The notes under the pieces: generated by a model
The model's input: only the letters and a program-made list of their open reading frames with translations
What the model was told of the DNA's origin: nothing
The model's database searches: none
Shown here: positions 1 to 31,700 of the stretch, in pieces
Layout of the letters: each line of letters begins with the position of its first letter
Position numbering within the stretch: position 1 is the stretch's first letter
From: Malacoraja senta
Taxonomy: Eukaryota
DNA length: 64,000 nucleotides
Direction: 5' to 3'
Assembly (NCBI GenBank): GCA_038087875.1
Contig: CM075989.1
Span: 1,736,001 to 1,800,000, forward strand
Position numbers and translations under genes: made by a program

Positions 1-275
1 TGACTACATGAAGAGCCCGCCAGGGCGCATGCGCGACATATCGCTAGCGCAGGCGGGGGGGGGGGGGGGGGAACGCTCCCCGCAGCGGTAAGCTTAAAAC
101 AGAGACCTACAGATAAGTTTCTTACTCTGAGGTAGTTTTTCGTGTGTCTTTCTGTTCCAGGAAGGGCAACGATGGACAGGACCCGTACCAAGTCCAAACG
201 AGCCGCTAAGAAACTGGCTCAGGAGGACCGCGGAAGTACCGGGAGCCAGCAGCGGCCGACTGCAGCACCGCACCT

Positions 276-1283
276 TTGCGATCAGCGGTCTCTGTCCGGG
301 CACCTGTGCAGCCTGGGTCGCCACAGGCTGACAGGAACGCCAATAGATTGGACACGCTCATGGACTCCGATGTGTCGGGCCATGAGCAAACGGCGCCGGC
401 AAACAGCGACAGTAGTCGCATTACACGTCTGGAGCGGCTAGTGGAGCAATTGCTTCACCGTGACAAACTCCGTGAGCAGGAGTCAAGTCACTACCGGCTT
501 CCGAGGAAGCCCATGGCAGTACCTTTTTCAGGGCTGCACAATGTATCTCCCTCGACAGAGGGGAGCATTGGGAATCATTTCTGGGCTGACTCCGAACAAG
601 GGTTGGCTGAAGATACCTCAAGTGTGCAGGGGGTGCCAGAAGAGAAGATGCTGGGCATGGTGAAAAAGTTTGCGGTGCCTCCACAGTCAGGGCAGCCGCT
701 GAAACAACAACTAGCAGCCAGCATTGACTACCTATCAACCCATCAATTACAAGAACAGGCAGTTAATGAAACTACTGCAAAATACCTGGCACCAGGGAAC
801 TGTACTTCACTGAATTTCCCAGCAGTGAATCCCTCCATCTGGGGACATATTGGTGCAGGTGTAAGGGCACAGGAGGTACAAATGCAGAAAATCCTTCAAC
901 TTTTAACAACTGGGATTACAGCATTTGCCCGGTCGGTGGATGACACGGAAATGACAGAGGCTCAGCAAGATACGCTGGCGTGGCTCTGCAATACACATTT
1001 CAAGATGAACTGTTTCCGTAAGAACTCCATCCTCCCAGCCTTGAACCCCAAATTTGCGTCTCTGTGTAAGACCAACACCACACCGCCGCCAATTTTGTTA
1101 TTTGGGGGCAACCTGTCCAAACAGGTTAAAGACCTGGATGAAGAGGCGAAAGCCGCCGGGCTCATCAAGGCATCGGGGAAAATACCTCGGCGACAGCACC
1201 CCTACGCATCCACCAGCAGGCCACGTCACATCGAAGCTGGTGAAAGCTCGAAGGCCGCAACTCAAGGACAAAGGTCTTTTTAG
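276..1283 (+). pseudogene. DIRS gag-like ORF1 (copy A), C-terminus cut by a 1-nt loss in a T run
   Basis: 335-aa ORF homologous to ORF 5952-7049 (VNxxIW, PALNPKFAxLC, LLFGxxL); occupies the ORF1 position. Confidence 0.85.
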
Positions 1284-1390
1284 ACCGCGGCCCAGAGCGA
1301 CCTTCGTGGAAGATGCGCCAACCCTGAATACCAGCACCTCAATCGGCCAAGAAACAGAAGAAAAAGAGATGAACACCCCACTGGGTAACC

Positions 1391-3325
1391 ATGGAGGTAG
1401 GTGGGTCTGGTTCCTCCCAGGGACTTAGCGGGTGCAATGGATACACTTGTTGGTGGTAGGTTACACTGGTTTAATGAGGCATGGAGATCAATAACCTCTG
1501 ATTCTTATACACTGCATAGTGTTCAAGGGTATGAAATTGAATTAGAAAACAAACGCCTTCCTCCGGTTCAGCATGCGCCCATCAGATCATTTATTCTATC
1601 ACAACAAGAGAAGTTGGATGGTCATGCTGAAATTAAGAGGCTTTATACTAAGGGTGTAATTGAGAGATCTCAACATGAGTCTCAGAATTTGTGTCAAACA
1701 TTTTCACAAAAAAGAAAAAAGATGGTGGATGTCGCATCATTATTGATTTAAGACAATTGAACACATTTGTGCAGTATACTCACTTCAAAATGGAAACCTT
1801 TGACACGGCCAAACAATTGATTTCCGAAGGCTACTTCATGGCATGCATCGATTTAAAAGATGCATACTATTCGGTCCCTATACACAAGGATCACCGCCGA
1901 TATCTGAAGTTTAACTGGATGGGGCAGCTTTGGCAGTACAAAGCACTACCTAATGGGTTGACCTCAGCCCCCAGATTATTCACTAAATTACTGAAACTAG
2001 CTATGGCGGTTCTTCGGAAACAAAAACATATAGTCATGGCGTATTTAGATGACATACTAATCATGGGTAAAACCTATGAATTACCCTATTAAGCTGTTAC
2101 AGCTACCATAGGTCTATTTGAGAAACTGGGGTTTATCATACATCCAGATAAATCAAAGTTAACACCATCCACGAATATGGATTATTTGGGATTCACCATT
2201 AATTCAGTTCACATGACTGTGACTTTACCTAGGGGAAAGGCAACTGAATTAATGGAAGTTTGCAGCAACCTTGCTGTCATCAGTCAACCATCTATCAGAC
2301 TAGTAGCAAGGGTAATTGGCAAAATCGTAGCTGCTTTTCCAGCGACACACTTTGGACCTTTGCACTATCAAAATTTACAGAGAGCAAAGGTGCGAGCACT
2401 TAAAAATCATGCTGGTCATTTCGATAGACCAATGCAATTACCAACAAAAGCTATTTTGGAACTGCGATGGTGGACAAATAACATTCGGCGTTCCTACAGC
2501 TCCATTATTATTTGCAACCCGTCAGTTGTATTACAGACTGATGCCAGCGCTCAAGGTTGGGGTGCCACCAACACCATCTCCAGTTGTGGGGGCAGATGGG
2601 ATGCGCATGAATCATCTTTGCTTTATACACTTGATATCAATTATTTGGAAATGTTGGGAGCATTCTATGGTTTGAAGGCGTACTGTTCAAAAATGCATCA
2701 TTTGCATGTTCGCCTGCAAATAGATAATACCACTGTGGTGGCTTATATTAATCACATGGGTGGAATCAGATCGATATCATGTGATGATCTGGCCAATTCA
2801 ATCTGGCAATGATATATCCAGAGAAACATTTGGATATCTGCTATTTACCTACCAGGTAAATTTAATTCAGTGGCAGAGACCAGGTCACGGAAATTTAATG
2901 ACAACACTGAATGGATGTTGGACCCCAAAGTGTTTGCAGATATCATAGCAAGATATGGAACACCAGATATCGATCTATTTGCATCTAGGCTTAACCACCA
3001 GTTGCCGACATATGTTGTGTGGGAACCAGACCCTGGGGCAGCAGCGATGGATGAATTTTCGCTGCACTGGGGAAATTTGTTTTTCTATGCATTTCCCCCC
3101 TTCTGCCTCATCAGTCGGGTCTTACGCAAAATACAACAAGACTCTGCGTCAGGTATTTTGGTAGTACCCGCCTGTCCTACCCAGCCATGGTTCCCTGTGG
3201 TTCTCGACATGGTTTCAGAACCATGTATGGCCGTCACTAAAAGACCAGACTTGATGGTCCATCCTGTAACTGGCGAAAGTCATCCATGCCATGACAGGAC
3301 TAATCTGTTAATTTGCAGAATTTGA
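1391..3325 (+). pseudogene. DIRS pol: reverse transcriptase, RNase H and DNA N6-adenine-methyltransferase-like domain (disrupted)
   Basis: IDLKDAY, LPNGLTSAPRLF, YLDD; RH TDAS, INYLE, DNTT; MT DLFASRLN...YAFPPF; several stops and frameshifts. Confidence 0.93.
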
Positions 3326-4294
3326 ATAGGCCACTTCTGGATCTTGGACTGACGGACCGAACCATCAACATGATCACGGCGGCACAAAGAGAGTCTACCA
3401 GAAAACAGTACCTGACTTACATCAGGAAATGGGAACGTTATTGTTCCAGGACTAATGTTGAGTATAACTCAGCCATTGTAACTAATGTCCTGGAGTTCCT
3501 CTCTACCCTTCATTTTGATGAAAGGCTTAGCTACAGTGCCATCAACAGCGCCAGGAGTGCCCTATCCACCTATTTGTGGCAGGGATTCGACCACCATTCA
3601 CTGGGGTCTCACCCCTTGGTTTCCAAACTAATGAGGGGTATATTCAACTCGAATCCCCCAGGGCAAGATACTCTAACATTTGGGATGTGAGTATTGTGTT
3701 GACGTTGCTTCGGGGTTGGTCACCAGCAACATCCCTGTCCCTGGAGAAACTTACCCTTAAATTGGTAATGCTGATGGCACTGGTCTCGGCCCAGCGGGTG
3801 CAATCGCTACACAAATTACGTCTGGACTCGATGGTCAAAGGGACTAATAATATAACTTTTTATATTCATGAACTGGTAAAACAAAACAGACCAGGGTCAC
3901 CAGGCCTTAAACTAGAGTTTCGGGCATACCCTACAGATGTTCGCTTATGCGTTATGACACATCTGTTACTTTACATAGAACTAACAGCTAAAGTAAGAGG
4001 CAAAGAATTGGCACTTTTAGTGAGCCACAAAAGACCTCACAACAGGGTATCGGCCCAAACAATATCTAGGTGCTTCGACAGGTTTTAGGGGCAGCAGGGG
4101 TGGATACTGATATTTACAAATCTCATTCCACCAGGGCTGCAGCCACATCGGCAGCACGGCACATGGAGGTTCCAATGGATCACATCTTGGGTACGGCAGG
4201 ATGGTCCAGGGAGAAGACCTTCCAAGAATTTTATAATAAGCCAGTTGCTAAGCCTGTGACTTTTGCAGATACTATTTTGAGTTCTGTTTTATAA
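3313..4294 (+). pseudogene. DIRS tyrosine recombinase (disrupted)
   Basis: STRKQY..W, SYSAINSARSALS, SAQRVQSL, HSTRAAATS, GWS..TF..FY; two frameshifts. Confidence 0.93.
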
Positions 4295-4466
4295 TACGCC
4301 CCGAAGGATAGGAGTCATTATTATAATTTGTGTTAATAAATCACTTATTGTTTCTTTTAACAATTGATTCATGTCCGGATTTGTTAACATACTTCCTCCT
4401 CAGTCTACGACAGCAGGGTGTGAAGCATGGACTCGTTCCGTGGCATGAAATCACAGAGCTTTAAAA

Positions 4467-4579
4467 TCTTCACGTAGTCACTCACGTGAATCTGAAGTAA
4501 AATAGTTAAAATAAATGAGAACTTAACAGTTTGAAGTTTGATCTTTATTTTATGAGGAGTTACGTTGAGGGATTATGTG
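4467..4579 (+). promoter_or_regulatory. ICR of DIRS copy A
   Basis: First part is complementary to the element 5' end (as seen in copies B and C), second part to its 3' end; joined at GAAGTAA|AATAG. Confidence 0.9.
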
Positions 4580-4793
4580 CCCTCCACGCCCACCCTCTAT
4601 TATAAAGGGCAGCTGGTATTATTGTTCTTATCTTACTATGTTATTTCGACTACCGTATCTGTGATTTCACACCACTGCTTTGAAGATATGTCGCTCATGC
4701 GCCCTGGCGGGCTCTTCACGTAATCCCTCAACGTAACTCCTCATAAAATAAAGATCAAACTTCAAACTGGTAAGCTCGTTTAATCTTACTATT

Positions 4794-5814
4794 AATGATA
4801 ATAGTAACCTCCCTCAACCGGGAGGAAACTATAAACAGAACCGAACATAGAGTTGGCAAATACCCCAGGCCTGGCAATGGGTTAGTTTTAAAATGTTTGG
4901 AAGATCGTTCGTTTGACCATCCTGCAGCCGCTAGGATGTGGTCCCTCGAAACGTCCATAACCCTGCTGCTGATGTTGTTGCAGCCCTGGTGGAGTGAGAC
5001 TTTAAAATGTCAGTGTCCTCTCCTGTATAAGCCAGAACCCGTTAACCACCTGGAGATGGTCTGTAGTGATACCTACTTATGACGCTTTATGTAACTAACA
5101 AATATTGCTAGTTCAGAGTCTTTAAGCTCTTAGTGACCTTAACATACTGGTGTAGATGTGTGACCACAAACAACAGAAGGTCCAAGGGATATGCCAACAA
5201 GTCTAGTTTAAGACCTGATGCCCCTGGTCTATTCTGCTTGACTAAGACATAACCATAACATGTTATTTTGCTTGCAGATATAATCATCCTGTCCAGTCCC
5301 TAGCTTAAGCAATGACTGGACCCGTTGCGCTGGACTCAGCGCCGTGAGTACAACCACTTTGTAAGTGAGTTTGACCAAGGACAGGGATGTAGCTGGATCC
5401 CACAGGTGAAGCGGCGTTAGCACAATGTTAACATCCCATATCTCTGCGTACCTGGGACTGGGAGGTTTTGAGTTTGAAGATACCCTTCATAATTTAGATA
5501 TCAGAGAGCGAGACCCGACAGAGTGGATTCTACTCCCCGCAGCCAATATGAAGAGAAGGCACGTTCGGAAAAATAAATGGCACTTTAACTTAATATTTGT
5601 CAAAACCCATATAACCTGAACTTCAAGAAGTCAGTCATCCATGCCGAAACATATGTAATATTAGCATAAATCAACTACTTCCCATCTCCTTATGAGGAAA
5701 ATACAGCTATTTGGTGCTATCCCTGCAATCTGCAGTGAGCATGGCTATGGTTTGGGTTAACAACCCGAGCCATAGGAACGGTCTTCTCTGAGTCTGCAAG
5801 TCAATGAATTGATT
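4794..5814 (-). mobile_element. DIRS copy D, YR and 3'UTR segment (degenerate host of copies A and B+C)
   Basis: Minus-strand YR remnants (AQRVQSL, HILAAAGWS); collinear with copy E 21310-22310. Confidence 0.88.
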
Positions 5815-5951
5815 TTACTTTGGAGTCACGTGAGTGACTACGTGAAGAACCCGCTCAGTGCACAGGCGCGACAGGGGGGCAGCAACAGGCGGCAGGACCG
5901 CTCATAGAGCGCACCGCTATCCCCGAGACCGAGCCAAGCCCAGTCCTGCTA

Positions 5952-7049
5952 ATGCCTGAACAGCGGACAGGGAGAAAAGCCACCAGAAAAACTAACCGGC
6001 CGGTAATTTCCGATTCGTCGGATGGGGACATGTCTCCACCTAAACGGAGGAGAGACAGCCGCCTGAGCTTACAACAGCTCTTGGAGCAGATGCTCCAGCG
6101 GGATACGCAGAAAGAGCGTTCTCACGGAGGAAGGTCAGGCACCTCCTCCACAGTGTCTTGTGCACTGCCCTCTGCTCCCTCATTACTGGAGGCTAGCATT
6201 GGTGACCAGGGTTGGGCTGGTCTGGAACAGGGGCTGGCGGACGAGCTCGGGAGTATGCAAGGGGTGCAGGAGCAGGAAGAGCTGCTGGATGTGGTGGACC
6301 GCTATGTAGCAATCCCACATGCTGGAAGACCGCTGGAACCGAAAATGGTGGCTAGCATCAATCATCTTTCAAATAAGCCCTTGCAGGAGAAGGTGCTTAT
6401 TGAGGCGCTAGAACTCTACACAGCACCAGAGAACTGTGAGGGCCTCAGAGTGAAGAGTGTGAACAGCCAGATCTGGGGGCACGTGGGGTCACACATTCGT
6501 AACCATGAACTAAAGCTACAGCGGATCCTAAGGCTCCTGACGTCGGCCATCACAGCCTTTGCTCGTTCTGTGGAAAGCACGGAGATGGATACCTGCCAGC
6601 AGGATGTGCTGGCACTGATGTGCAACACACAATTTGAGATCAATAATCTCCGGCGTGAAAACATAAGACCTGCCCTCAATCCCAAATTTGCTGGGTTGTG
6701 CAGAGCCCCAGCTCCAGAAACGGATGCTCTATTATTTGGGAAAGACCTCAACAAGAAACTGAGGGACATGGAGGAAGCAGCGAAAACATTCGGCCTCATG
6801 CGGGCAGGCCCCGGGACGAGCAAACCAAGACCTACAATACCCAAGCGGCAGCACCCCACGGCATTCACCAGTCGACGTCCTCAATATGGGACTGGTGAAA
6901 GCTCGGGGACCGCATTTTATCCCCAAAGATCTTTTTTAGATCAGGGCCCAGAGTGGACCCCATGGAAAATGCGCCACCCCCCAACATCGCCAGCAGGGCC
7001 GACAAGCAAAGCCTACAAGAACATGAGGAAACAAAAGAAACGCCAATAA
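5952..7049 (+). CDS. DIRS gag-like ORF1 (copy B), open reading frame; N-terminus probably truncated
   Basis: 365-aa open frame homologous to the other copies; basic C-terminus. Confidence 0.8.
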   Translation: MPEQRTGRKATRKTNRPVISDSSDGDMSPPKRRRDSRLSLQQLLEQMLQRDTQKERSHGGRSGTSSTVSCALPSAPSLLEASIGDQGWAGLEQGLADELGSMQGVQEQEELLDVVDRYVAIPHAGRPLEPKMVASINHLSNKPLQEKVLIEALELYTAPENCEGLRVKSVNSQIWGHVGSHIRNHELKLQRILRLLTSAITAFARSVESTEMDTCQQDVLALMCNTQFEINNLRRENIRPALNPKFAGLCRAPAPETDALLFGKDLNKKLRDMEEAAKTFGLMRAGPGTSKPRPTIPKRQHPTAFTSRRPQYGTGESSGTAFYPQRSFLDQGPEWTPWKMRHPPTSPAGPTSKAYKNMRKQKKRQ

Positions 7050-7051
7050 CC

Positions 7052-8987
7052 ATGGAGGTAGGTGGGTCTGGTTCCTGCCAGCATATAGAGAATAAGGGTG
7101 CTTTACTAACAGGGGGGAGATTACACTTGTTTAAAGAAGCATGGGGTACTGTCACGAGTGATACGTATATACTCAACAGCATTAGTGGATATAAAATTCA
7201 GTTCATGTCATAAAAAACGCCGCCAGTTCAACATTGGCCCCAAAGGGTATTTTCTCCCTCCGTCAAAGAGAAACGTGAGGGACAAGCTGAACTGGTGAGA
7301 CTTATCACAAAGGGGGTCATCGAAAAGACCAAACATGAACCTTTGGAATTTGTATCAAATATATTCACTAAAACCAAAAAAGATGGTGGATGTCGCATCA
7401 TCATTGACTTAACATCACTAAATAAGTTTGTTAAGTATATACATTTCAAAATGGAGACATTTGTTACTGCCAAACAACTGATTTCCAAAGGATACTTCAT
7501 GGCAAGCATTGATCTTAAAGATGCTTACTATCTAATACCCATACACAAGGATCATTGCAGATACCTACAATTTATCTGGTTGGAGCAGCTGTGGCAGTAC
7601 AAAGCATTGCCCAATGGGCTAACTTCAGCCCCAAGATTATTCACCAAAATATTGAAAATAGCCATGGCAATACTAAGAAAACAAAAACATATTGTCATGG
7701 CATAACTGGATGATATTCTGATAGTAGGGAAAACGATGGAATTGGCTGTGGCAGCAGTATCAGCTACAAAACAGCTCCTCGAAACTCTGGGGTTCGTCCT
7801 ACATCCAGATAAATCTAAGTTGAAGCCATCCACTATCATGGACTACCTGGGCTTCACAATTAACTCAGTCCATATGACTGTTACCTCTCCAAAGGAAAAA
7901 ATGGTTGCATTAGCACAATCATGCAACAATTTAATGGTCAACAAACGACCAACTATTCGACAAGTAGCAAGAGTGATTGGGAAAATGGTAGCAGCATTTC
8001 CGGCTACACAATTTGGACCTTTGCACATATTAAAATTTACAAAGAGCAAAGGTACAGGCACTAAAACGACATACTGGTCACTATGATCGTGTCATGAAAT
8101 TACCCACTGAAGCAATATCAGAGCTACAGTGGTGGGCAGAAAATGTTTGGCATAGTTTCAGCTCTATCATCATCACTAACCCTACTTTAGTTCTTCAAAC
8201 AGATGCCAGTGCTCAAGGCTGGGGAGCAACTAACTCCATATCCAGCACAGGTGGTAGATGGACTAACCTAGAGTCATCATTACTACTGACACTGGGCATT
8301 AACTATCTAGAGATGTTGGGCGCCTTTTATGGTTTAAAAGCATATGTATCTAATATGCAGCACTTGCATGTTCAGTTACAGATTGATAATACTACGGTGG
8401 TGGCTTATATTAACCATATGGGCGGCATAAAATCATTATCATGCGACAAATTGGTCAATGTGATTTGGCAATGGTGTGTCGAAAGACATATTTGGCTATC
8501 AGCTACTTATCTACCAGGTAAGCTAAACACAGTGGCAGACACCAGGTCACGCAAATTCAATGACAACATCGAATGGATGTTAAACCCTAAAGTATTTGCT
8601 AAAGTTATTAAGCAGTATGGAACGCCAGATATCGATTTATTTGCATCAAGACTAAATCACCAGTTACCTATGTATGTCGCTTGGGAACCAGACCCAGAGG
8701 CAGCAGCGCTAGATGCCTTCACGCTGGATTGGGGAAATTTCTTCTTCTATGCTTTCCCTCTCTTCTGCCTCATCGGTCGGGTACTTCGCAAAATACAGAT
8801 GGACTCTGCTTCTGGAATTTTGATGGTGCCCGACTGGCCTACACAGCCATGGTTCCCGGTTCTACATGACATGGTGGTTGAGTCACCAATGGTCTTTCCC
8901 AGTGATCCAGGATTATTAACTCAACCAGTATCAGGCATAAGCCACCCATGTCATGAGAAAATTAAACTCCTGCATTGCAGGTTTTGA
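7052..8987 (+). pseudogene. DIRS pol RT/RH/MT (copy B, disrupted)
   Basis: MEVGGSGS..GGRL start; IDLKDAY; YLDD mutated to stop-LDD; TDAS; DLFASRLN. Confidence 0.93.
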
Positions 8988-9957
8988 ATAGACCTTACCT
9001 GGAACTGGGATTGTCCGAACGAACCATCACCACCATGTCGGCATCCCTTCGAACATCCACCAAGAGGCAGTACTAAATCAGCTTAAAAAAATGGGAGAAG
9101 TACTGCCAGGAAACAGGGACAACGTATGCAACAGACACAGCCACCAACGTACTGGAGTTCCTGGCCCATCTACACCATGATGAAGGGATCAGTTACAGTG
9201 CCATCAACACAGCGCGGAGTGCTCTTTCTGCTTACCTCAAACCAGCAGGACAACAGGCAATGGGATCCCATCCACTGGTGGTAAAACTGATGAAGGGCAT
9301 TTATAATATCAAGCCCCTAAACCCAGGTATACCCATATTTGGGATATCAGTGTGGTCCTGACATACCTCAGGGAATGGCCACCAGCCAGATCCCTCAGCC
9401 TCGAGCAATCTACACTAAAGACGCTCATGTTGATGGCACTTGTATCCGCTCAGAGGGTCCAGTCACTACACAAGTTAAGGCTGGACAACATGGTGACCAC
9501 CCCAGATCAGATCACATTCATCATACAGGGTCTGGTGAAGCAAAGCAGGCCAGGAACAGCGAATCCACTGGTGGTATTCCGGGCCTACCCACAAGAGCCA
9601 CGGTTGTGTGTCGTGACCCATCTACAACATTACATAGACACAACCCACAATATCAGAGGGAGTGAAAAAGCCTTATGGGTCAGCCACAAGAAACCTCATG
9701 GCCGGGTAACGAGCCAAACCATTTCAAGATGGCTCAAACAGGTACTGAAGGCTGCCGGAATAGATACTAATACATTTAAATCTCATTCCACTAGGGCAGC
9801 ATCTACATCAACGGCCGAGAGAATGGACGTACCGGTTGACCATATTCTGAATACAGCAGGATGGTCGAGGGAAACGACATTCAGAACTTTTTATAATAAG
9901 CCGTTGATGAAACCTGATTTATTTGCAGAGAAAATATTACAAGCTGCAAATATTTAA
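8981..9957 (+). pseudogene. DIRS tyrosine recombinase (copy B, disrupted)
   Basis: SAQRVQSL, HSTRAAS, GWS..TF..FY; a stop and a frameshift in the 5' third. Confidence 0.92.
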
Positions 9958-10123
9958 TTTAAGCCCGGGGGAGCTATTTAATTTTGTTATTGTTAATAAA
10001 TACCTTTTTTGTTTCTTGAAAAACAGATTCATTGGTTGATTACGATAACACTTCCTCCCTCAAGAACTTCGGCAGTGAGTGAAATAAAACTGTTCCACGG
10101 TTTGAAATCACAGAGCTTTGAAA

Positions 10124-10236
10124 TCTTCACGTAGTCACTCACGTGACTCCGAAGTAAAATAGTAAGATTAAACGAGAACTTACCAGTTTGAAGTTTGATC
10201 TGTATTTTATGAGGAGTTACGATGAGGGATTACGTG
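10124..10236 (+). promoter_or_regulatory. ICR of DIRS copy B
   Basis: Reverse complement of the joined right-end/left-end sequence at about 10385-10497. Confidence 0.92.
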
Positions 10237-11804
10237 CCCTCCGCTCCCACCCTCATTATATGGATCAAACTAATAAATTGATGTCTCCTTTTCTTTACTA
10301 TGTTTACTTCAAATACCTGTGTCTATCTGTGATTCCACACCGCTGCTTGGAAGTATGCCGCGCCTGCGCACTGAGCGGGTTCTTCACGTAATCCCTCATC
10401 GTAACTCCTCATAAAATACAGATCAAACTTCAAACTGGTAAGTTCTCGTTTAATCTTACTATTTTACTTCGGAGTCACGTGAGTGACTACGTGAAGACCC
10501 CGTCCAGCACGCATGCGCGACATTAGCGTTCACGCAGTGCAACAGCGACGACCGGGAGTACAGGCGCTCCCGCTACACGTCGGTGAAAACTAAACAGCGG
10601 ACCATCAGGTAAGTCTTACACTGAGGTCGTAATCCGCAAGCTGTGCTCTGCTCTCTATTCCAGAGGAACTGGGAACAGGAGCAGCACGGCAAAGGAGAAA
10701 ACCGCCCCCCGTTCGACTCCAACAGAACGGGAGTGCTCCATCAGTGGGGGGCGAGAGGCGGCACCGGGACCGCATATGCGGCGGTCCACCCTCATCGAGA
10801 CCGAGCCGAGCCCAGTCCCGCTAGCGCAGCCTGATGAGCGGCAGCGGGCTGGAGGAAAAGTAAAAAAAAAACAAAAAAAAAACGGCCGGTTATGTCTGAC
10901 TCCGATGAGGAGGGTCCGCCTTAGAGCGGCAGAACTAGCCGCCTGAGCCGAATGGAAAGGCTCATGGAGCAACTGCTCCAATGAGACTTGCTTCAGGAGC
11001 TAGAGCAGTCTCGCCAGGGGGATCAGGCACTCCCACAGCAGTGCTCTACAATGCACTGGCCATCGCTTTCCCCTCAAAGCAGGGCAGCGTTGGCGACCAG
11101 GGCTGGGCTGGTCAGGAAGAGGGGTCATTGGCTGAAGATGTCGGGAGTACGCTTGGGGTACAGGATCAGGAAGAGCTGCTGGGTGTGGAGATTCGCTATG
11201 TGGTTTCACCACGAGCAGGGCGGCCATTGGAGCCAAAACTGGCAGCCAGCATCAACCACCTGTCCCTCAAACCCCTACAAGACAGGTACTTAATGAGGCA
11301 CTAGAGCTGGAAAACTGCAGTTCGCTCAATGTACCGGCTGTTAACAGCCAAATCTGGGGGGGGGGGACAGAGTATCCGGAACCAGGAGCTAAAATCCTCA
11401 AGCTCCAGACGACAGGGATAACAGCCTATGCTCGTTCCGTGGATGGGGTGGATATGACCACAAACCAGCAAGACACTCTGGCTCTGCTGTGCTACACCCA
11501 ATATGAGATAAATAACCTCCGCAAGGAGAGAATAAGACCTGCCCTCATGAGGGCAGGCCCCGGAACGAGCAGACCCACACAAAAAACCAGACGGCAGTAC
11601 CCCACCGCGTCCACCAGTCAAGGTCAAATTTATGTAACTGGTGAAAGCTCGGGGTCCGCATACTATCCCCGAAAGCCTTTTTAGGCCAGGGCCCAGAGCG
11701 GACCCCATGGAAAATGCGCCACCCCCAATCAGCAGTACATCAGCAGTACATCCAGCAGTATAACGACGGATGAACAAACGGAAGAAAGGAACACTACCAT
11801 AACT

Positions 11805-13690
11805 ATGGAGGTAGGTGGGTCTGGTTCCTACCAGCATGTAAATGGGGAACTGTACTAACAGGAGGTGTCTCACGAATGATAGTTATATACTTAACAGTAT
11901 TCGGGGATACAAAATAGAGTTCATTCAAGAAAACATGCCACCAGTTCAGCACATACCCCAAAGGGTCTTTACCCTCTCAGTCAAAGAGAACTAGAGGCTC
12001 AAGCAGAACTGGGGAGGTTACTTACAAAGGGTGTCATTGAGAAATCCAAACATGATCCTTTGGAATTTGTCTCAAATATATTTACCAAAAGCAAAAAAGA
12101 TGGTGGATGTCGCATCATCATTGACTTAACCTCACTAAATACCTTTGTTAAGTATGTACATTTCAAAATGGAAACATTTGTAACTGCTAAACAACTGATT
12201 TCCAAGGATACTTTATGGCAAGCATTGATTTAAAAGATGCCTACTATTCAGTACCCATTCACAAGGGTCATCGCAGATACCTGAAAATTTACCTGGATGG
12301 GGCAACTATGGCAGTATAAAGTATTGCCTAATGGGTTGACATCAGCCTTAGACTATTTACCAAGATATTAAAACCAGCCTTGGCAACATTAACGAAACAA
12401 AGACATATTGTCATGGCATATCTTGAAGATATCCTAATAGTTGGCAAAACCATGGAGTTGGCTAAATCAGCTGTATTAGCTACCAAACAATTGTTTGAAA
12501 CCGTGGGTTTGTCATACATCCAGATAAATCTAAGTTGACGCCATCCACAACTATGGACTGTCTGGGATTCACAATTAACTCAATCCACATGTCTGTAACG
12601 TTGCCAAAAGGTAAAGCAGCAGAATTGGCACAGATGTGCAACAATTTAATGGTAAGCAATCGACCAACCATCCGACAAGTGGCAAGAGTAATTGGCAAAA
12701 TGGTAGCAGCATTTTCAGCTACACAATTTGGACTCCTGCACTATCAGCACCTACAAAGGGCAAAAGTACAGGCGTTGAAACGACATACAGGTCACTTTGA
12801 CAGATCCATGAAACTACCCATTGAAGCAATATCACAGTTACAATGGTGGATATAACACATTTGGCATAGTTCCAGCCCTATCATCATCAATAACCCAACG
12901 TTAACTATACAAACAGATGCCAGTGCTCAAGGCTGGGGAGCAACTAATACCATATCCAGCACAGGTGGTAGATGGACTAACCTAGACTCGTCTTTACTAC
13001 AAACACTGGGCATAAATTATTTGGAAATGTTGGGTGCGTTTTATGGTTTTAAAGCATATTCTAGGAATATGCACAACTTGCATGTTCATTTACAAATTGA
13101 TAATATCACGGTGGTGGCCTATATTAACCATATGACCGGAATAAAATCGATATCATGTGACAATTGGGTCAACACAATCTGGTAATGGTGGGTCGATAGA
13201 CATATTGGCTATCAGCAACTTACCTACCAGGTAAGCTAAATACAGTGCCAGGTCATGCAAATTCAATGATAAACACCGAATGGATGTTAAATCCTAGAGC
13301 TTTACTAAAATTACAAACCAATATGGCACACCAGATATCGATCTCTTTGCATCCAGACTAAATCACCACGTACCAATGTATGTCCCTTGGGAACCACACC
13401 CTGAGGCAGCAGCGATAGATGCATTCGCGCTGAACTGGGAGACAGATTTCTTCTATGCTTTTTCCCCTTCTGCCTTAATCTGTAGGGTACTACGCAAAAT
13501 ACAGATGGACTCTGCCTCAGGTATTTTGATAGTACCAACTGGCCTACACAGCCATGATTCCCAGTGGTCCTCGACATGGTCATCGAAACTCCTATGACCT
13601 TTCCCAGTAGCCCAGACCTATTGACGCACCCTGTATCAGGCATAAGTCATCCATGCCATGCCAAAATTAACCTACTGGGTTGCAGATTAT
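11805..13690 (+). pseudogene. DIRS pol RT/RH/MT (copy C, many lesions)
   Basis: DGGCRIIIDL, IDLKDAY, RPTIRQVARVIGK, TDAS, DLFASRLN fragments. Confidence 0.9.
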
Positions 13691-14660
13691 CAAAAGACCA
13701 CTGCTGGGACTGGGATTGTCTGACAGGACCATCAACATGATGACACCGTATGTCCACCAGGAAACAATACCTATCGAGCATCAGGAAGTGGGAAAGATAC
13801 TGCTCGACTACTGGGACAACGTACTCATCTGCAACCATAACCAATGTACTGGAGTTCCTGGGGGGCCTTCACCATAATGAAGGATTGAGCTACAGCGCCA
13901 TCAATACTGCCAGACGTGCGCTGTCAGCCTACTTAAAACAGGTGCCAGGACAACAGGCCATAGGGTCTCACCCGCTGGTGATCAAACTCATGAGGAGTAT
14001 CGTCAACTCCAACCCTCTTAGACCTAGGTATACACAAATCTGGGATGTCAGTGTGGTCCTGACATACCTAAGGGGATGGTCCCCAGCCAGGTCTCTCACC
14101 CTGGAAAAGCTAACCCTGAAAACGGTCATGCTGATGCTACTAGTCTCAGCACAAAGAGTCCAGTCCCTCCACTTACTGCGACTGGACAACATGGTTATAA
14201 CACCAGACCGGGTCTCATTCACCATTCAGGAGCTGCTAAAGCAGAGCAAGCCAGGAACTTGAGTCCTAGTTATGGATTTCCGGGCATACCCACCTGACCT
14301 ACGGTTGTGTGTCATGACTCACTTATTCACTTACATCAACACAACAAGAGATTCTCGAGGGAGAAGGGAAAAAAAAATATATAATAATAATAAATAAAAA
14401 AGCCTTATGGGTCAGCCACAAGAAACCTCATGGTTGGGTGTCGAGCCAAACCATCTCGAGATGGCTCAAGCAGGTACTGGGAGCTGCTGGAGTAGATACT
14501 GATGTATATACATCTCACTCCACCAGGGCAGCATCCACATCGGCGGCTAAAAGAATGAACATGGAGAAAACGTTCCAAACGTTCTACCACAAGCCGCTAG
14601 CAGAACCTGTGTTATTTGCAGAAAGAGTTTTAAAATCTGCAAAAATATATAATTTAAGCC
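13686..14660 (+). pseudogene. DIRS tyrosine recombinase (copy C, disrupted)
   Basis: STRKQYL..W, SAQRVQSL, HSTRAAS; A-rich insert at about 14368-14400; GWS segment deleted. Confidence 0.9.
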
Positions 14661-15158
14661 CGGGGGGGGTGCATTTTGTCTTTTGTTATTGTTTAATAGA
14701 TACCATTATTGTTTACAAACAGATTATGGTTGATTACGATAACATACTTCCTCCCTTGAATGACTTCGGCAGCGAGTGAAGTATGAACTGTTACACGGTT
14801 TGAAATCACAGAGCTTTAAAATCTTCACGTAGTCACTCACGTGACTCCGAAGTAAAATAGTAAGATTAAACGAGAACTTACCAGTTTGAAGTTTGATCTG
14901 TATTTTATGAGGAGTTACGATGAGGGATTACGTGACCTCCGCTCCCACCCTCAAATATATAGATCAACAGGTATCTTAGTTCTCCTTTTCTTTACTATGT
15001 TTATTTCAATTATTGTGTTTCCTGTGATTCCACACCGCTGCTTTGAAGAATGTCGCGCATGCGTGCTGGACGGGGTCTTCACGTAATCCCTCATCGTAAC
15101 TCCTCATAAAATACAGATCAAACTTCAAACTGGTAAGTTCTCATTTAATCTTACTATT

Positions 15159-18100
15159 TTATCATGCAGAGGATGGTTTACCGAGTTAAGGCTAAACCAG
15201 CAAATCTTTGTGTCTAGAAATAACCACATAAGGTTCTATTATCATTCCCCACATCAGCAGGAACCATGGCTGTAAAGGCCAGTCATGCACTACGAAGAAG
15301 CCTGAAGCAGGAACTAGCTGATTTTTTTGCAAGACCCGTCTGATGAGGCAAAATGGAAGGAGACATAAAAGAACATTCCTCCCCAGTGTAGCGAGAATGC
15401 ATCCATCGCCACTGATATGCCACATATTGTTTGCAACTGGTGATTGAGCCTGGATGCAAATATCTGGATCTTTTAGTGTTCCATCGAGCTACAATGTCAT
15501 TAAATACTTTGTGATCCAACATCCATTCTGTGTTATCATTGATTTTACATAATGATACACCAGTGCCAAATGAGGGTAGGTAAACTATCACTGGATACTT
15601 TAACTTGGTTGCACCCATGTGATTAACATACCACCACCAAAGTGCATCAACTTGGACGAGCATCCAGATCATGCATATCCGCACAAACCTTTAACCCATA
15701 GAATGCACCTAGTGTCTATAGGTAGTTGATACCTTTAACTGAAGAATTGGCAACTCATGCAATCCCATCCGCCTCCGTAACTAGAGATGGTATTAGTAAT
15801 TTTCCATCTTGAGCAATAGCATCAGTTTGTAATTAACTGAAGATTTACTGCTGAAAAGTTAGTGGAGCAATGCTGAATACTGTTTGTCCACCATGGTGAC
15901 TTTGATGGTTTCAGCTGGAATAGCATAGGTCTGGTAACAATGACCTATGTGGTACTTGAGAGCTTGCTCCTTTGTACGTGTACACTGATAATGCAAAGGC
16001 CAAATAGCACAGCTGAAAGCCAATATATTGCCAATTATAATTGATGAATATGGCTGCTTGATAACACCAACAAGGTTGTTACAGGCTTCAATTAATTCCA
16101 ATCTTTTGCCTCAGGGCGGAATCCCAGACAAATGAATAGAGTTAAAGGTAAATCCCAATAAATAATCATTTCAGTTGGTATCAACTTAAATGTAACTGGA
16201 TGGGTGAGAAACCCAATTTCTCAAATATAGTTTGGTGGCTGATACAGCTAATTTAACAAATTACAGCGTTTAGAATGTCATCCCGCTGGCCATGAGAATT
16301 GTTTTTTAGCTCTGAGCAGTTGAAGCACTGGTTTTAGTAATTTGGTAAATAACCTGGGAGCTGAAGTTAGCCCATTTTGCAACGCTTCTAAATGTATCAT
16401 TGCCCCATTCAGCTAAATTTCAAATATCTCCGGTGCCCTGTGAATGGAAACTGATCCCATGGAAGTTAAACAGTCACGAAGTTTCCTATTCAGAAATGTC
16501 TATACTGCACATGCGAGTTGAACCTGTTGACAATGAACAGGCCACATCTGCCATAATTGCGAGCCTGCCTTGAAAGGCAACTCCCTTGCTTGTTTGCTGT
16601 GCAATATAAACTAATCTCATGTTATCATTGTCATCTGTACAAAAACCAAGTGTAAATATTACCAACTTGTATCCGTGACAGGAGGCATCATATGGCTCCA
16701 TCTTCATCCTTCATACCTCCGAATGGGAGGACTTATGCAACCTGAACCAGGAGCTGCCTCAGGCATGTGCGCATGTATTGTAGCACCATCTCCATCACTA
16801 CGTTCGATCGAGTGGGAGGAATTGCAACCCTGAAACAGGTGTCGCTTCAGGCACATGTGCACTTCCGTAGCACCCTCTACCACTCCGTTTCTTTGAGTGG
16901 GAGGAAATTTGCAACCCTGAACCAGGAGCTGCTACCTGACATGCCTTAGGATGGAGCGTTCTTGACTGCGATGAGTCGCAATCTTGTCTGACATAGTTGC
17001 CCAAGACTTGGCACTCACTCTGAGTTGAGGTTTGTCAGGTTGCTTCCTTCAGCAGCCGCCAGGATTAGTTGCTCCTTTCCGATGCCAATGCAGTCTACAG
17101 GGAAGGACTGGAGCGCCTCTAGCCCCCGTATGCCAGACATAGTGGGAGAAATGCTGGAAAAACCTGCCAGTTATTTGTCATAGGCAAAGACGTTTACATA
17201 AACGAAGACGCCCACCCAGTTAAATCAAAGATTTGATTACTTTATTGATATGAATAAACCCGGAGTCTCGGGGAAGAATCTTCCACAGTCCCTTTAATGA
17301 GCGGAATTACCATGACACCACTATGTGTAGAACTGAAACAATTAATCAGAGGGTATCAGCATAATGGTGCCTACCCTGTATAGCCATATACTTGAAAGAA
17401 TACACTATAACTGCTAATGCCATGGAGGCGTAGGGGTGTTTATGCCGTTAGTAACGCTCATGAATGGAAGCATGTGCCATGGACATTCCTCCGGGGTTGG
17501 GGTCAGTCACACACTGACCCATGCATGCCTCTCTACAGAGAGGGAGATCTGTGAGCAGCCCTGTACCCAGGTGCTGCCGTAAACCTTCGTGGACCTTGTG
17601 CTGATATGGCCCTGTTATAGTCGACCATATCAGGCTGGGTAAGACGTCCGAGGACGTATCCTAGCATGTCGGAGGGGACCCTCCTGGCCAGGCTCGTCCA
17701 GCCCGGGCCTCTCCGACTTTGTTTGGTTGCCTACCTTTGGGCTGCCCAAGTCGAAGTCGCTCCACCGTGCGAACCCGACGGCCACCGGCTACCCGCTCTC
17801 CCGTGGTCTGTAGCCGACATCTCTGTAGGTAATGTAGTGGCTTATCCTCCAAGCGGGGTTGCCTGGGTGCTCCTGGCACCAGTCTGAATCCGCTGGCTCC
17901 ACCGCCAGCGAACCGAAAAGGCGAATTCGACCGCCGCCCGCTACCCAGCATTCCGTGGTCTCCGTAGCGGGTTCCCCGTGGACCCTGTAGAAGGGATTCC
18001 CCGCAAAGTCCATGTCGGGTTTTCCCCGCGGTTTTCGCAGCCGGGATTCCCTCTGCGGTCCCTGTAGAAGGGCTTCCCCACGATGTCTGTGGTCGGGCCC

Positions 18101-18402
18101 CCCCCCCCGAGCCGGATCCCCGCAGTTTTCGCAGCCGGGATCCCCCCCCTCCCCCCGTGGTCCCTGTAGAAGGGAGCCGGGTGAAGCCGGGATTTCGACC
18201 CCGGAACGTCTCCAGCTAGAACTCTGTAAAGAGCCTCCTGCAAGGAGAAAACAGACCTGGAAAAAGTTCAAACTTACCATCAGGTTTGACCGCTAGTGGA
18301 GCAGCGCTCCCACCAGCCGTCGTTGCGCAATGCGTTAGACGATATGATGCGCATGCGGGCTGGCGGGGTCTTCACGTAGTCACTCACGTGACTCCGAAGT
18401 AA
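15159..18402 (-). mobile_element. DIRS copy D, 5' part (left ITR, gag, deleted RT/RH/MT)
   Basis: Minus-strand left end TTACTTCGGAGTCACGTGAGTGACTACGTGAAG at 18402; NDNTEWMLD, YVNHMG and SAPRLFTKLLK remnants; continuous with 4794-5814 once B+C are removed. Confidence 0.88.
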
Positions 18403-18461
18403 AATAGCCACTTATGCCGCTGACTCTAGACCTCTCATACTTTTATAAACCTCCTGCAGAT

Positions 18462-20158: not shown

Positions 20159-20358
20159 NNNNNNNNNNNNNNNNNNNNNNNNNNNNNNNNNNNNNNNNNN
20201 NNNNNNNNNNNNNNNNNNNNNNNNNNNNNNNNNNNNNNNNNNNNNNNNNNNNNNNNNNNNNNNNNNNNNNNNNNNNNNNNNNNNNNNNNNNNNNNNNNNN
20301 NNNNNNNNNNNNNNNNNNNNNNNNNNNNNNNNNNNNNNNNNNNNNNNNNNNNNNNNNN
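20159..20358. other. Assembly gap (200 N)
   Basis: Run of N. Confidence 1.
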
Positions 20359-22752
20359 CTACCAAATTCACCAATTTGGGTCAAATATATTCCCTCGGAA
20401 AAAAAAAAAAAGAAAGGATGGAGGATGTAGGATTATTATAGACTTGACAAGTCTGAATCCTTTTGTTCAGTGTCTGTTCACTTGGAAGAAATGAAGTATC
20501 TTAAATTTACATGGATGAACCAGTTAGGGCTCTGCCTAATGGGTTAACGTCCGCTCCCAGAATATTCATGAAATTGTTAAAATCTTACTATTCAGCGTTG
20601 CTCCACTAAACCTTTCATCCGTAAATCTTCAGTCAATTCCAAACTGATGCAATTACTCAAAGATGGAAAATTACTAATACCATCTCTAGTTACGGAGGCA
20701 GATGGGATTAGCATGAGTTATCAATTGTTCAGTTATGGTATCAACTGCCAATGGACACCAGGTGCATTCTGTGCATTAAAGGGTGTGTGAATATGCATAA
20801 TCTGCATCCACAAGTCCAAGGTGATACACTTTGGTGGTGGTATATGTTAATCACAAGGGTGAAATCAAATCAAAGTATCCGGTGATAGTTTACCTAACCG
20901 CATTTAGCACTGGTGTATCATTATGTAAAATCAATGACAACACAGAATGGATGTGCGATCACAAAGTATTTAATGACATTGTGGCTCGATGGAACACTGA
21001 CGATCGAGAGGTTTGCATCCTGGCTCAATCACCAGTTGCAGAAAATACGAGGCATATCAATGGCGATGGGTGCATTCTCGTTACACTAGGGAGGAATGTT
21101 CTTTTATGTCTTCCTCCATTTGGCCTCATTAGACGGGTCTTGCAAAATTCAGCAAGTTTCCCACTTCCGGCATTTTCGTAGTTCCTGCCTGGTTTATATA
21201 CCCATGGTTCCCGCTGATGTGGAGAATGATCATAAAACCTTACATGGTTATTTCTGGACACAAAAAATTGCTGGTTCAGCTGTGATGTGGAAACCATCCT
21301 CTGCATGATATAATCAATTCATTGACTTGCAGACTCTGAGAGACCGTTCCTGCGGCTCGGGTTGTTTAACCAAAAGCCTTGGAAGTGCTCACTGCAGATT
21401 GCAGGGATAGCACCAAATAGCAGCATTCCTCATAAGGAGATGGGAGGTATGGTTTATGCTTATTTACATTTAACTCAGCATGGATGACTGACGCCTTGAA
21501 ATTCAGTTTATATGGCATTTTATAGCATTAAGTTAAAGTTCCATTTACTGTGCCTGAAGTACCTCCTCATCATTTGGCTGCGGGGAACAGAAACCACTCT
21601 GTCGGGTCTCATCCTCTGACATCTAGATTATGAAGGTTATCGTCAATTTAAAACCTCCTAGGCCTAGGGACACAGAGATATGGGTTGTTAACATTGTGCT
21701 ATGTCACTTTGCCGAAGGGCTCCAACAACATCCCTGTCCTTGGTCAAACTCACTGACTAGTGGTTATGCCATGGCGCTGAGTACAGCGCAACGGGTCCAG
21801 TCATTGCTACACTGGATAGGATGATCATATCTCCGGGCAATAATAACATGTTATGTTTATGATTAAGTCAAGCAGAGTAGACAGGGACATAGACCAAACT
21901 AGATGTTGCATATCCCATGGACCTTGGGTTGTGTGTGATCACGCATCTACACCAGTATGTCAAGGTCCCTAAGAGCCTTATAGACTCTGACTAGCAATAT
22001 TGTTAGTTACATAAAACCTTGTTAGAAGGTATCACTCCAGACCTTCTCCAGGGGGTTAAATGGGTCTGGCTTATGCAGGAGTGAACATTGACATTTTGGG
22101 TCTCACTCCACCAGGACCGCAACACCTCAGCAGCAGGGTTATGGACCACATCCTAGCGGCTGCAGGATGGTCAAACAAACGATCTGTCCAAATATTCAGA
22201 ATAAACCCATTGCCAGATCGGGGGTATTTGCCAACTCTATGTTAGGTCTGTTTCATAACTTCTTCCCGGTTGAGGGAGGTTACTATTGCCACTATTGTTC
22301 ATTAATAGCATCAACATGTTTATATCTATGTCATGTCTGAATGCGTTATTAATGTTCACTCATCATTGGCCTACTGATGCAGTTTATGACGCCTGGACTC
22401 GTTTCCACAGCATGAAATCACAGAGCTTTAAAATCTTCACTTGACCGAAGTAAAATAGTAAGATTAAACGAGAACTTACCAGTTTAAAGTTTGATCTTTA
22501 TTTTATGAGGAGTAACGTTGAGGGATTACGTGCCCTCCACACCCACCCTCTATCATAAAGGTCAACTGGTATTCTTGTTTCTCTTATCTTACTATGTTTA
22601 ATTCAATAACTGTTGTCTGTGATTTCACACCGCTGCTTTGAAGATTGACACGCATGCGTGCTGGCGGAGTCTTCACGTCATCCCTCAACGTTATTCCTCA
22701 TAAAATAAAGATCAAACTTCAAACGGGTAAGTTCTCGTTTAATCTTACTGTT
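20359..22752 (+). mobile_element. DIRS copy E (degenerate; 5' part lost in or before the gap), same lineage as D
   Basis: RT, RH/MT and YR remnants; ICR about 22434-22532; right ITR ending AATCTTACTGTT. Confidence 0.88.
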
Positions 22753-22767
22753 ATAAATCACAATTTT

Positions 22768-28664: not shown

Positions 28665-28798
28665 CCTATTTCCTTTGGTCCATAGATGCTGCTGCACCCG
28701 CTGAGTTTCTCCAGCATTTTTGTGTACCTTCGATTTTCCAGCATCTGCAATTCCTTCTTTAACACTTTGTCTACTCCACTGCGACATCTCCTCAAGGT

Positions 28799-31700
28799 AT
28801 GCCTACTTTGAAGAAGTTCTCCTCCTCTCTCCGGAGACTGTTCCTCAACCACCTCTCTAACTGCCCCATCTCTGTGATCCCCCCTGCCCTCCTACTCTAC
28901 GACCACATCCTTACCCAAACTCGATATCACAGCCACATCTGCTTCCTCGGGGCATGCCTGCGCCTCCATCTCATACCTCATGGCTTCCAGCTCCAGTTCC
29001 CTACTTCCCAGTTCGGACCCCAGCCGGACTATCGGTACCGACTGGCTATCTACTGGCATACCCAACAATTCTCCACCCGGGCACTGAGATCCACACAGAC
29101 TGCGATGCGCCGGCACCAGCAGGACCTCGCATTGACCCTCCCGGAACTTCGGGCCTCACTCACCCAGACCTGCAACGGACCACAACTGTACTTTATCCGC
29201 CGGAAGATCCACCTCTTCAATAAAAGATTCCTGGCCCACCTCAACTCCACCAAGGACCTTAAATTAGCCCGCCTCCAGGCCGCTCCCACCGCCAACACTC
29301 CGCGACTCGACCGCCCGCAGGCTCCGGGCCCCAACTCCGGCCCGCATCGCCTGCCCCAGTCCCGCGACGCCATCTTGTCCACGGGGAGCGCCTCCAGTAC
29401 TCACCAGGACGCCATCTTGTCCACGGGGAGCGCCTCCAGTACTCACCAGGACGCCATCTTGTCCACGGGGAGCGCCTCCAGTACTCACCAGGACGCCATC
29501 TTGTCCACGGGGAGCGCCTCCAGTACTCACCAGGACGCCATCTTGTCCACGGGGAGCGCCTCCAGTACTCACCTGGACGCCGCCTTCACCGACCTCCACG
29601 TCGATGCTGCCGCCGACCTTCACCTGCATACCAATGACGCCCAGCCTCGCCGCTTCTACGGTAACTCAGACTTCCTCCCCCTCGCCGATTCCTCCGAACC
29701 TCGCCGCCCCCCGGGACCTCCCAACATCATCGCCGCACTGGGCCCGCCGAACATCACAGCCGCACCCGGTCCTCCCAACATCGTCGCCGCACCGGGCCCT
29801 TCCAGCATCGCCGCCGGACCGGACCTACTCTACACGACCGCCGGACCGGGGCTCCCCGAACATGGCCGCCGCACCGCACCCTACACACCCCGTCGCCTCA
29901 CCGGGCTGGTCGAACCGCGCCGCCCCACCGACCATCGGCCCACCGGGACCTCCCACGCATCGCCCGTGAACCCCGACCATCGGGTCCGCCGACCCTCGCC
30001 ACTGCACGTCCCTCCAGCAGCCCGCAGCCGTCGCCTCGCCTGCAGAATGAACTCTGTACTGGGCCTGAAGCCTCCACGCTGCTCACTCCCACTCTCCTGG
30101 GTTTGACTCCACTGGGTCCTAGCGCTAGTCTGCCTATTCCTGGTTACCTCAGTGTTAGTTCCATTGATTCTTCCCCATCCTTCTCCAACTATGGGACCCC
30201 TTCTCTTCCCCACCCACACTACAGCCCTCTCACCCCCCACCCCCTGACCACCCACCACCCACCACCCCCCCACCACACATCGCCTCGTCCCCATTCCACC
30301 CACCTGCCTTCCTCCAGCCCCAACCCCCATCCCTGCTGGGTGTTCACCATCCCCCCCGACCTCCCCCTCTCCGACATCAAACGGTCTGTCCTCAGCAGAG
30401 GTCTTACCTTTGACCCCCTCCGTCCCCACCTCAATGAGTTCCATGCCCTCCATGACTTGGAACGCTTCTACCGTCGCCTCCGCCTCACAGCGCACTTCCC
30501 TCGTAGCCTTCCGGCTTTAGAACTCTTCATCAAAAACTGCCACCGTGACATCAACCGCCTTAACTTCTCCACTCCCCTGTCTCACTCCAATCTCTCCCCC
30601 CTTGAACGCACTGCCATCGACTCACTCCGCAACAACCTAGATTGGGTTATCAAACCCGCCGACAAGGGAGGTGCCGTGGTAGTCTGGCGCGTCGATCTCT
30701 ACAAAGCTGAGGCCACGCGCCAACTCTCGGACACCTCCTCCTACATACCTTTGGACCATGACCCCACTGACGAGCACCAGGCCACCATCTCCAGCACCAT
30801 CACCAACTTCATCCACTCCCACGCCCTGCCCGAACGAGCCTCCAACCTCATCGTTCCCCAGCCCCGCACAGCCCGCTTTTACCTTCTCCCCAAAATCCAC
30901 AAACCTGACTGTCCCGGTAGACCCATTGTCTCTGCCTGTTCTTGCCCCACCGAACTCATCTCTGCCTACCTCGACTCCATACTATCCCCCTTGGTTAAAT
31001 CCCTCCCCACCTATGTTCAAGACACCTCAGACACTCTCCGTCATCTCCGCGCATTCCACTCTCTAGGCCCTCACCCCCTCATCTTCACCATGGACGTCCA
31101 GTCATTGTACACCTCCATCCCCCACCAGGATGGTCTCGAAGCCCTCCGTTTTTTCCTCGACCGAAGAAGCAACCTATACCCGGCCACTGACACCCTCCTC
31201 CGCCTAGCGGAGCTGGTCCTTACCCTCAATAACTTCTTATTTGACTCCTCCCATTTCCTCCAAATACAAGGCATAGCTATGGGCACACGCATGGGCCCCA
31301 GCTACGCCTGCCTCTTTGTCGGGTACGTAGAACAATCCTTGTTCAATACGTACCAGGGCCCCATCCCCGACCTCTACCTCCGCTACATCGACGACTGTTT
31401 GGTGCCACCTCCTGCACCCACACACAACTGACTGACTTCATCCGCTTCACCACCAACTTCCATCCGGCACTCAAATACACCTGGACCATTTCCGACACTT
31501 CCCTACCATTCCTTGACCTCACTATCTCCATCGCAGGTGATAGACTTCATACCGACATACACTACAAACCTACTGACTCCCATGGCTATCTGGACTACAC
31601 TTGTTCCCACCCTGCTTCCTGTAAGGACTCCATCCCCCACTCTCAATTCCTCCGTCTACGCCGCATCTGCTCCCAGGATGAGGCGTTCCACACCAGGGCA

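Follow-up and report, generated by a model that had tools for sequence, protein, structure and literature searches.

Two ordinary DIRS1-like retrotransposons, here designated B and C, stand in an uncommon and precise arrangement in the DNA of Malacoraja senta. They are joined tail to head and, as comparison with a paralogous sequence indicates, the pair occupies one ATT site in a third DIRS element, D, which is older and inverted. We assign a probability of about 0.6 to the reading that B and C entered one after the other, each through recombinase-driven insertion at a single ATT in D, which would have been regenerated by the first event.

Composition of the DIRS nest

The window, i.e. the whole stretch of 64,000 nucleotides analysed here (assembly GCA_038087875.1, contig CM075989.1, positions 1,736,001 to 1,800,000), contains at 1-22755 a nest of five DIRS1-like elements with the following features.

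1..4794, plus strand: DIRS element A, with the left tip beyond the window and the right end abutting D at ATT
4800..5817, minus strand: downstream piece of host element D with the tyrosine recombinase (YR), continuous with the upstream piece in the paralogue E
5812..10463, plus strand: DIRS element B; pol and YR nearly intact, with a few stops and frameshifts
5812..5873, plus strand: left inverted terminal repeat (ITR) of B, starting at ATT inside D; 36/37 to its own internal complementary region (ICR)
5838..7049, plus strand: gag-like frame of B, 43-50% identical to frames of A and C
7214..7705, plus strand: reverse transcriptase (RT) piece of B (PF00078, E 6e-08)
8034..8987, plus strand: RNase H / putative methyltransferase region of B, by homology to the matching frame of A
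8984..9957, plus strand: tyrosine recombinase of B (PF00589, E 3.1e-10 for 9307-9954), with one break
10124..10236, minus strand: ICR of B, reverse complement of the junction 10385-10497
10356..10463, plus strand: right ITR plus right extension of B; 82/82 to its own ICR
10385..10497, plus strand: right end of B joined to left end of C, exact reverse complement of both ICRs
10461..10463, plus strand: ATT core common to B and C where they join, within ATTTTA at 10461-10466
10461..15158, plus strand: DIRS element C; gag, pol and YR decayed, ends near-perfect
10461..10524, plus strand: left ITR of C; 37/37 to its own ICR
14822..14934, minus strand: ICR of C, identical to that of B
15049..15158, plus strand: right ITR plus right extension of C, terminating within D at ATT; 81/82 to its own ICR
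15156..18405, minus strand: upstream piece of the older host DIRS element D with probable left end, gag-like region and pol
20373..22753, plus strand: DIRS element E, interrupted upstream by a gap in the assembly; right end GTT

B and C are DIRS1-like retrotransposons with a YR, an RT, ITRs plus a right extension, and an ICR complementary to both ends. NTT is found at both ends and is shared with the target (ATT at 5812, 10461 and 15156); the proxy for the empty site described below has one ATT. In B, the RT is located upstream of the YR on the same strand, and homologous frames are present in A, C, D and E. The YR of B also matches a PHROG integrase, its best named protein match is from Leucoraja erinacea (56%), and the R, HSTR, W and F/Y columns are conserved across the 28 rows of a YR alignment. 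The gag-like frame of B gave no match in a Pfam search. The methyltransferase designation comes from the frame of A, which matches PHROG 111 DNA methyltransferase (E 1.2e-04); searches of Pfam and PHROG with the homologous RNase H / methyltransferase frame of B gave no match. Relative to C, B is without ~240 nt behind the left ITR; the loss begins at the inner edge of this ITR (window 5873-5880) and takes away the 5-prime leader and likely the gag start. The leaders of A, C and D contain a GGTAAG/GTAAG ... AG segment (111-161, 10609-10663 and 18277-18238, respectively) that is short-intron-like by sequence.

B and C are clearly distinct from each other. Their identity is 80.1% over 4379 aligned columns; it amounts to 82.3% for RT-RNase H and to 71.5% for the initial portion of the YR. 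When left and right ITRs are compared, the own pairs (55/67 in B, 58/69 in C) agree better than the cross pairs between the two elements (49/68 and 52/67). Private changes are enriched at third codon positions (20/16/54 by position in B, 33/22/43 in C), which argues for separate histories of B and C under selection. A tandem duplication or rolling-circle homodimer that diverged later would have accounted for the identical ICRs and the head-to-tail layout, but it is refuted by the family-specific ITR pairs and the 80% identity, the bodies differing by 18-28%, and we give it a negligible probability. The original prediction had likewise described the pair as neither a duplication nor a homodimeric circle, and this description stands.

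A single target site in element D

Element E is a paralogue of D (84-87% identical) and was taken as a proxy for the empty site. Both pieces of D align to E and meet there at one point. The left flank of B and the right flank of C are contiguous in E, with one ATT common to both, so that B and C together fill a single site in D and no target sequence was lost. The empty site in E reads ATTATA, and ATTTTA is present in the window at all three junctions. Judging from its spacing, the left end found at the upstream piece of D probably belongs to D itself. The right end of A adjoins D at ATT ~1 kb from the site of B and C, and ATT is thereby present at both sites for which an empty-site proxy is available. 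Both A and the first of B and C entered the body of D, not an end. In a tree of the RNase H/methyltransferase region the elements group as (D,E),(A,(B,C)), with values of 100/100 for both inner branches.

D has a 149-nt tandem duplication at window 16695-16926 and short imperfect repeats in its GC-rich 5-prime region (window 17990-18175), and the gap that cuts E upstream consists of 200 N (window 20159-20358).

The B|C junction

Over 113/113 letters, window 10385-10497 matches the reverse complement of the ICR of B (10124-10236) and equally that of the ICR of C (14822-14934), an agreement which as sequence is far beyond chance. The order at the junction is right end (CTTACT), core (ATTTTA, 10461-10466) and left end (CTTCGG), and the ICR copies have the opposite orientation. 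The direct passage from the right end of B into the left end of C, which had been predicted from inspection of the letters, is thus confirmed, and the join, which is known from the assembly sequence, is real and well defined there. The junction strand has a long hairpin fold (z -3.26), which results from the ITRs and is without power to discriminate between models.

Three exact 113-nt copies lie within 5 kb of one another and an assembly gap follows 5 kb downstream, and a join known from an assembly only might be an artefact, for instance a mis-join through the repeated terminal sequence. Among 23 public runs listed for the stretch, all of them contig-only, the share of its words present was 20-63%. 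We consider an artefact very unlikely: the two outer junctions agree base for base with a single target site in D, each element has a matched ITR pair of its own, and the overlap between the end of B and the start of C comprises nothing but the core.

Conserved ends and a three-base-pair core

B and C have the same ICR (113/113), to which the ICRs of A and E show 90-95% identity, whereas the bodies of the A, E and B/C groups share only 50-74% identity. Since the ICR is common to these families, any tail-to-head join at the core equals the ICR and looks like a circle junction. The term "perfect circle junction", used in the original prediction, therefore holds as a description of the exact match, but the match is automatic for any join at the core and neutral as to mechanism. 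As evidence for a mechanism it was rejected, because all families here share the ICR.

Beyond NTT the sequence at the ends differs between elements. The right end of A continues ATT-AAT and that of E GTT-ATA, and a long fixed target site was not found, as the other ends have only NTT in common with their flanks. By this comparison of ends the recombination core is 3 bp (NTT) and not ATTTTA; a requirement for ATTTTA as target was rejected on account of the right ends of A and E and the ends of the relatives described below, all of which show NTT only. For the same reason, the availability of ATTTTA, against which the frequency of such joins was originally to be judged, is the wrong null. Each end of B and C keeps the core ATT plus one half-site, and the use of such an end as a target is represented by one join.

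The ICR of E has a 14-nt deletion (window 22437-22450) in the part matching the left end. Its 3-prime end module (22379-22753) is closest to that of A (4413-4794), with 88% identity in the spacer that separates the ICR from the right ITR; this spacer is only 74-78% identical to those of B and C, and the body of E is 55-65% identical to A, B and C. The likeness of the two end modules suggests either an exchange of end modules between deep DIRS lineages or a very strong constraint on them.

Ends of distant relatives

Eighty loci of relatives were taken, and the 47 loci of at least 4300 nt were examined for left ends, which were found in 34 of them, at 32 distinct sites. These left ends comprise 29 with ATT, 2 with GTT and 1 with AAT, the last probably a coordinate slip. 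A search of the 80 loci with the right-end motif yielded 19 plus-strand rows, which were reduced to 13 distinct sites by dropping 2 ICR copies and 1 flankless row and by merging 4 rows of one site; it misses some ends, including those of A and C in the window. The rows dropped were those of L012 and L066, inverted pairs that meet at their ICRs and look like assembly chimeras, and of L036, where the flank is missing. Without exception, the 13 distinct right ends terminate in ATT, and an ATT-W-W context, which is also kept by the target of B and C, is present in 11 of the 13 sites.

The right-end motif was absent upstream of all 32 distinct left ends, and none of the 13 right ends was directly followed by a left end. 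This zero among 45 distinct ends comes from a biased sample and is weak, because the distant hosts are represented by short-read assemblies, which would be prone to break where two ends meet. Nesting as such recurs among the relatives, as the right end of one of them lies in the YR gene of another DIRS element in the same orientation (L060:166-200). Metagenome relatives with recombinase identities of 36-54% retain the right-end motif. The exact 24-nt end motif occurred in 0 stretches of the viral and 0 of the metagenome contigs, and a YR alignment search of the viral contigs gave no confirmed relative. At L066:4856-5282, possibly an assembly chimera, two facing elements have bodies of 65% and ICRs of 94% identity and would thus repeat the pattern of diverged bodies and conserved ICRs.

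Two successive insertions or one mixed circle

According to the published DIRS model, integration takes place by recombination between the circle junction and a trinucleotide that matches it, and this trinucleotide is left on both sides of the insertion (PMC3266345; PMC7192593). The circular intermediate itself belongs to the model, and amplification of its junction from Dictyostelium DIRS-1 cDNA did not succeed (PMC7192593); a circular cDNA intermediate of B and C is presumed here from this model. For B and C, a first circle would have recombined with the ATT in D, leaving an ATT plus one half-site at each end, and a second circle would then have recombined at either ATT. A full circle junction would thereby have been recreated, because all families here share end sequences, and with ends common across families a related recombinase could plausibly have used them. 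Several observations are consistent with such successive insertions: the flanks of B and C are contiguous in E with a single shared ATT, the trinucleotide is left on both sides in the published model, the ends of relatives are predominantly ATT (13/13 right, 29/32 left), and existing DIRS copies serve as targets, as for A, for the B/C pair and for the relative at L060.

The order of the two insertions can be approached through the ages of the elements. Mismatches between terminal copies amount to 3/138 in B and 1/138 in C (Fisher p 0.62), i.e. the ends are alike in age. Mismatch between end and ICR is a rough clock: the ICR of A (window 4467-4579) differs from A's own right end at 8/80 positions, though A abuts D, whose left end matches 37/37. 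The changes in A appear mostly in the ICR copy, and A is without an indel over 2.2 kb of pol and YR. Over the same 2.2 kb, C has 11 frameshifting indels and B 2, one of them at the alignment edge (p 0.022 for B versus C). Neutral decay estimated from codon positions is ~2.9-4.3% for C and 0-2.6% for B, a wide range that depends on an assumed codon-position ratio. With a decay of 2.5-4.3%, 7-12 mismatches would be expected in the ends of C, and 1 was seen (P <= 0.008). On the simplest reading, C is a decayed copy with recently renewed ends that was moved by the proteins of another element. Alternatively, local gene conversion could account for the fresh ends of C, and assembly errors for several 1-bp indels of C that are located in homopolymers. 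Within the scheme of successive insertions, the contrast between 11 versus 2 indels and a single mismatch in 138 end pairs would place C last, as a defective copy mobilized in trans that landed on the right end of B; we hold this order with less confidence than the scheme itself.

The similar age of the ends of B and C (p 0.62) and the width of the decay estimates speak against successive insertions, and a dimer circle that integrated once would yield an identical sequence. Such a mixed circle of B and C could have formed before integration in two ways. In one, the ICR of either element would have acted as a splint for the single-stranded cDNA end of its partner; in the other, the recombinase would have fused two monomer circles at their junctions. 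Cross-splinting would be possible, as the two ICRs agree in 113/113 positions, and DIRS-1 cDNA is described as comprising linear and circular single strands, with the ICR acting after synthesis of the first strand (PMC7192593). The similar end ages fit a single event, C, whose body is too broken for self-movement, has in B a sister family that is almost intact, and a second strike by chance is not required. However, the parts of PMC7192593 drawn on here report no dimer intermediate, the identity of ICRs is general among the families and does not single out B and C, and B too has stops and the 5-prime deletion. Overall, we regard integration as a preformed mixed circle as a possible but less probable origin.

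Chance and the question of preferred ends

The chance of a second strike on an end was calculated for insertion already confined to the nest, with 5 visible ends. Per insertion, an end would be struck with a probability of 0.4% (RTT), 0.7% (ATT), 1.2% (RTT-W-W) or 17% (ATTTTA), and at least one such strike in 4 insertions has a probability of 1.5%, 2.7%, 4.6% and 53%, respectively. Under the NTT-type nulls, which are the supported ones, the B|C join is thus unlikely as a chance event, though a possible one for a feature picked from many windows. The low value of 0.4-1.2% per insertion weighs against two successive insertions if the second was unguided.

A special case of successive insertion, put forward in the original prediction, would be that integrated DIRS ends are preferred, att-like targets for related recombinases and that mixed arrays grow cassette by cassette. 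In its favour, unguided strikes are rare (1.5-4.6% for at least one in 4 nest insertions under the NTT-type nulls), the conservation of the right-end motif down to 36-54% recombinase identity is what may be expected of a binding arm, and mixed arrays arise in this way among bacterial elements whose integration restores the site (PMC12715192), which could serve as an analogy. Against it, the B|C join is a single case picked from a scan, in an array of two units only; stacked ends were found at 0/32 left and 0/13 right ends of relatives, in short-read assemblies that would tend to break; and if a 6-bp match were favoured, a chance strike within the nest would reach 17% per insertion. A preference for ends, if there is one, would be less than absolute, given that A and the first of B and C inserted into the body of D. 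We consider a general preference for ends rather doubtful; for the narrower proposition that the flanking half-site raised the odds of the second landing, the chances are roughly even.

A broader view would be that deeply diverged DIRS families of this animal share one recombination site, that any of their recombinases can move and stack any copies, defective ones included, and that favoured ends or ICR-splinted dimers build mixed arrays resembling integrons. We put this forward tentatively and think it more probably wrong than right.

Relation to known systems

The DIRS1-like retrotransposons described by Piednoel et al. (2011, PMC3266345) resemble the elements of the nest in their gag, RT/RH with a putative MT, and YR, in their ITRs, right extension, ICR complementary to both ends and terminal NTT, and in having no further target duplication; in the portions of that paper used here the description concerns single elements, whereas B and C form a precise tail-to-head join of two families. 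DIRS-1 of Dictyostelium likewise nests in existing copies (Cappello 1984, cited in PMC5633606), but it inserts into its own copies with no apparent sequence preference (PMC5633606), and the targets in the window are other families, one of them being exactly an element end. For dimers of Drosophila transposable elements, double insertion at a preserved site has been identified as the main route (McGurk and Barbash 2018, PMC5932611). These dimers also arise from two insertions at one preserved target in head-to-tail orientation, but their junction contains a target duplication, while in B|C the element's own recombination site is restored; DIRS has 0 occurrences in the text of that study as far as it was accessible. 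TATE elements in the telomeric repeats of Leishmania (PMC6681497) are likewise YR retroelements arranged in tandem at one relative position; unlike the elements here, they are of the split-direct-repeat type and use a host telomere repeat as target. In Xer/dif-integrating IMEX of Vibrio, a regenerated site allows different elements to stack (PMC12715192), but these rely on a host recombinase and a long fixed site, whereas the elements of the nest encode their recombinase themselves, use a core of 3 bp and have a preference that is hypothetical. The accessible text of a Xenopus survey (PMC9210276) does not contain the words tandem, nested or target. In the literature searched, we found no report of a precise mixed DIRS dimer, although the descriptions of vertebrate DIRS elements by Goodwin and Poulter may mention such an arrangement.

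A mixed join with a known empty site displays the 3-bp core rule in a chromosome and bears on the choice of targets by DIRS recombinases. If ends were favoured targets, or if families shared one site in trans, this would help to explain clusters of DIRS elements such as the DIRS1 pericentromeric hot spots reported in notothenioid fish (PMC6387122). If the reading of a shared site is true, the B|C join would represent a frozen copy of the circle junction that was not amplifiable from DIRS-1 cDNA. Either unit might also be able to excise through the restored junction. If the join is due to a chance double strike, it is an instructive but ordinary nest.

Other elements in the window

Outside the nest, a strongly C-skewed element at window 28763-32447 has an RT match followed by a GIY-YIG match, both below the Pfam cut-off, and is Penelope-like. 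A zf-RVT LINE-like frame is located at window 56875-58224, and the window also contains SINE-like repeats. At window 59865-63396 there is an LTR-type retroelement whose zinc knuckle, protease, RNase H and integrase are spread over several frames interrupted by stops.
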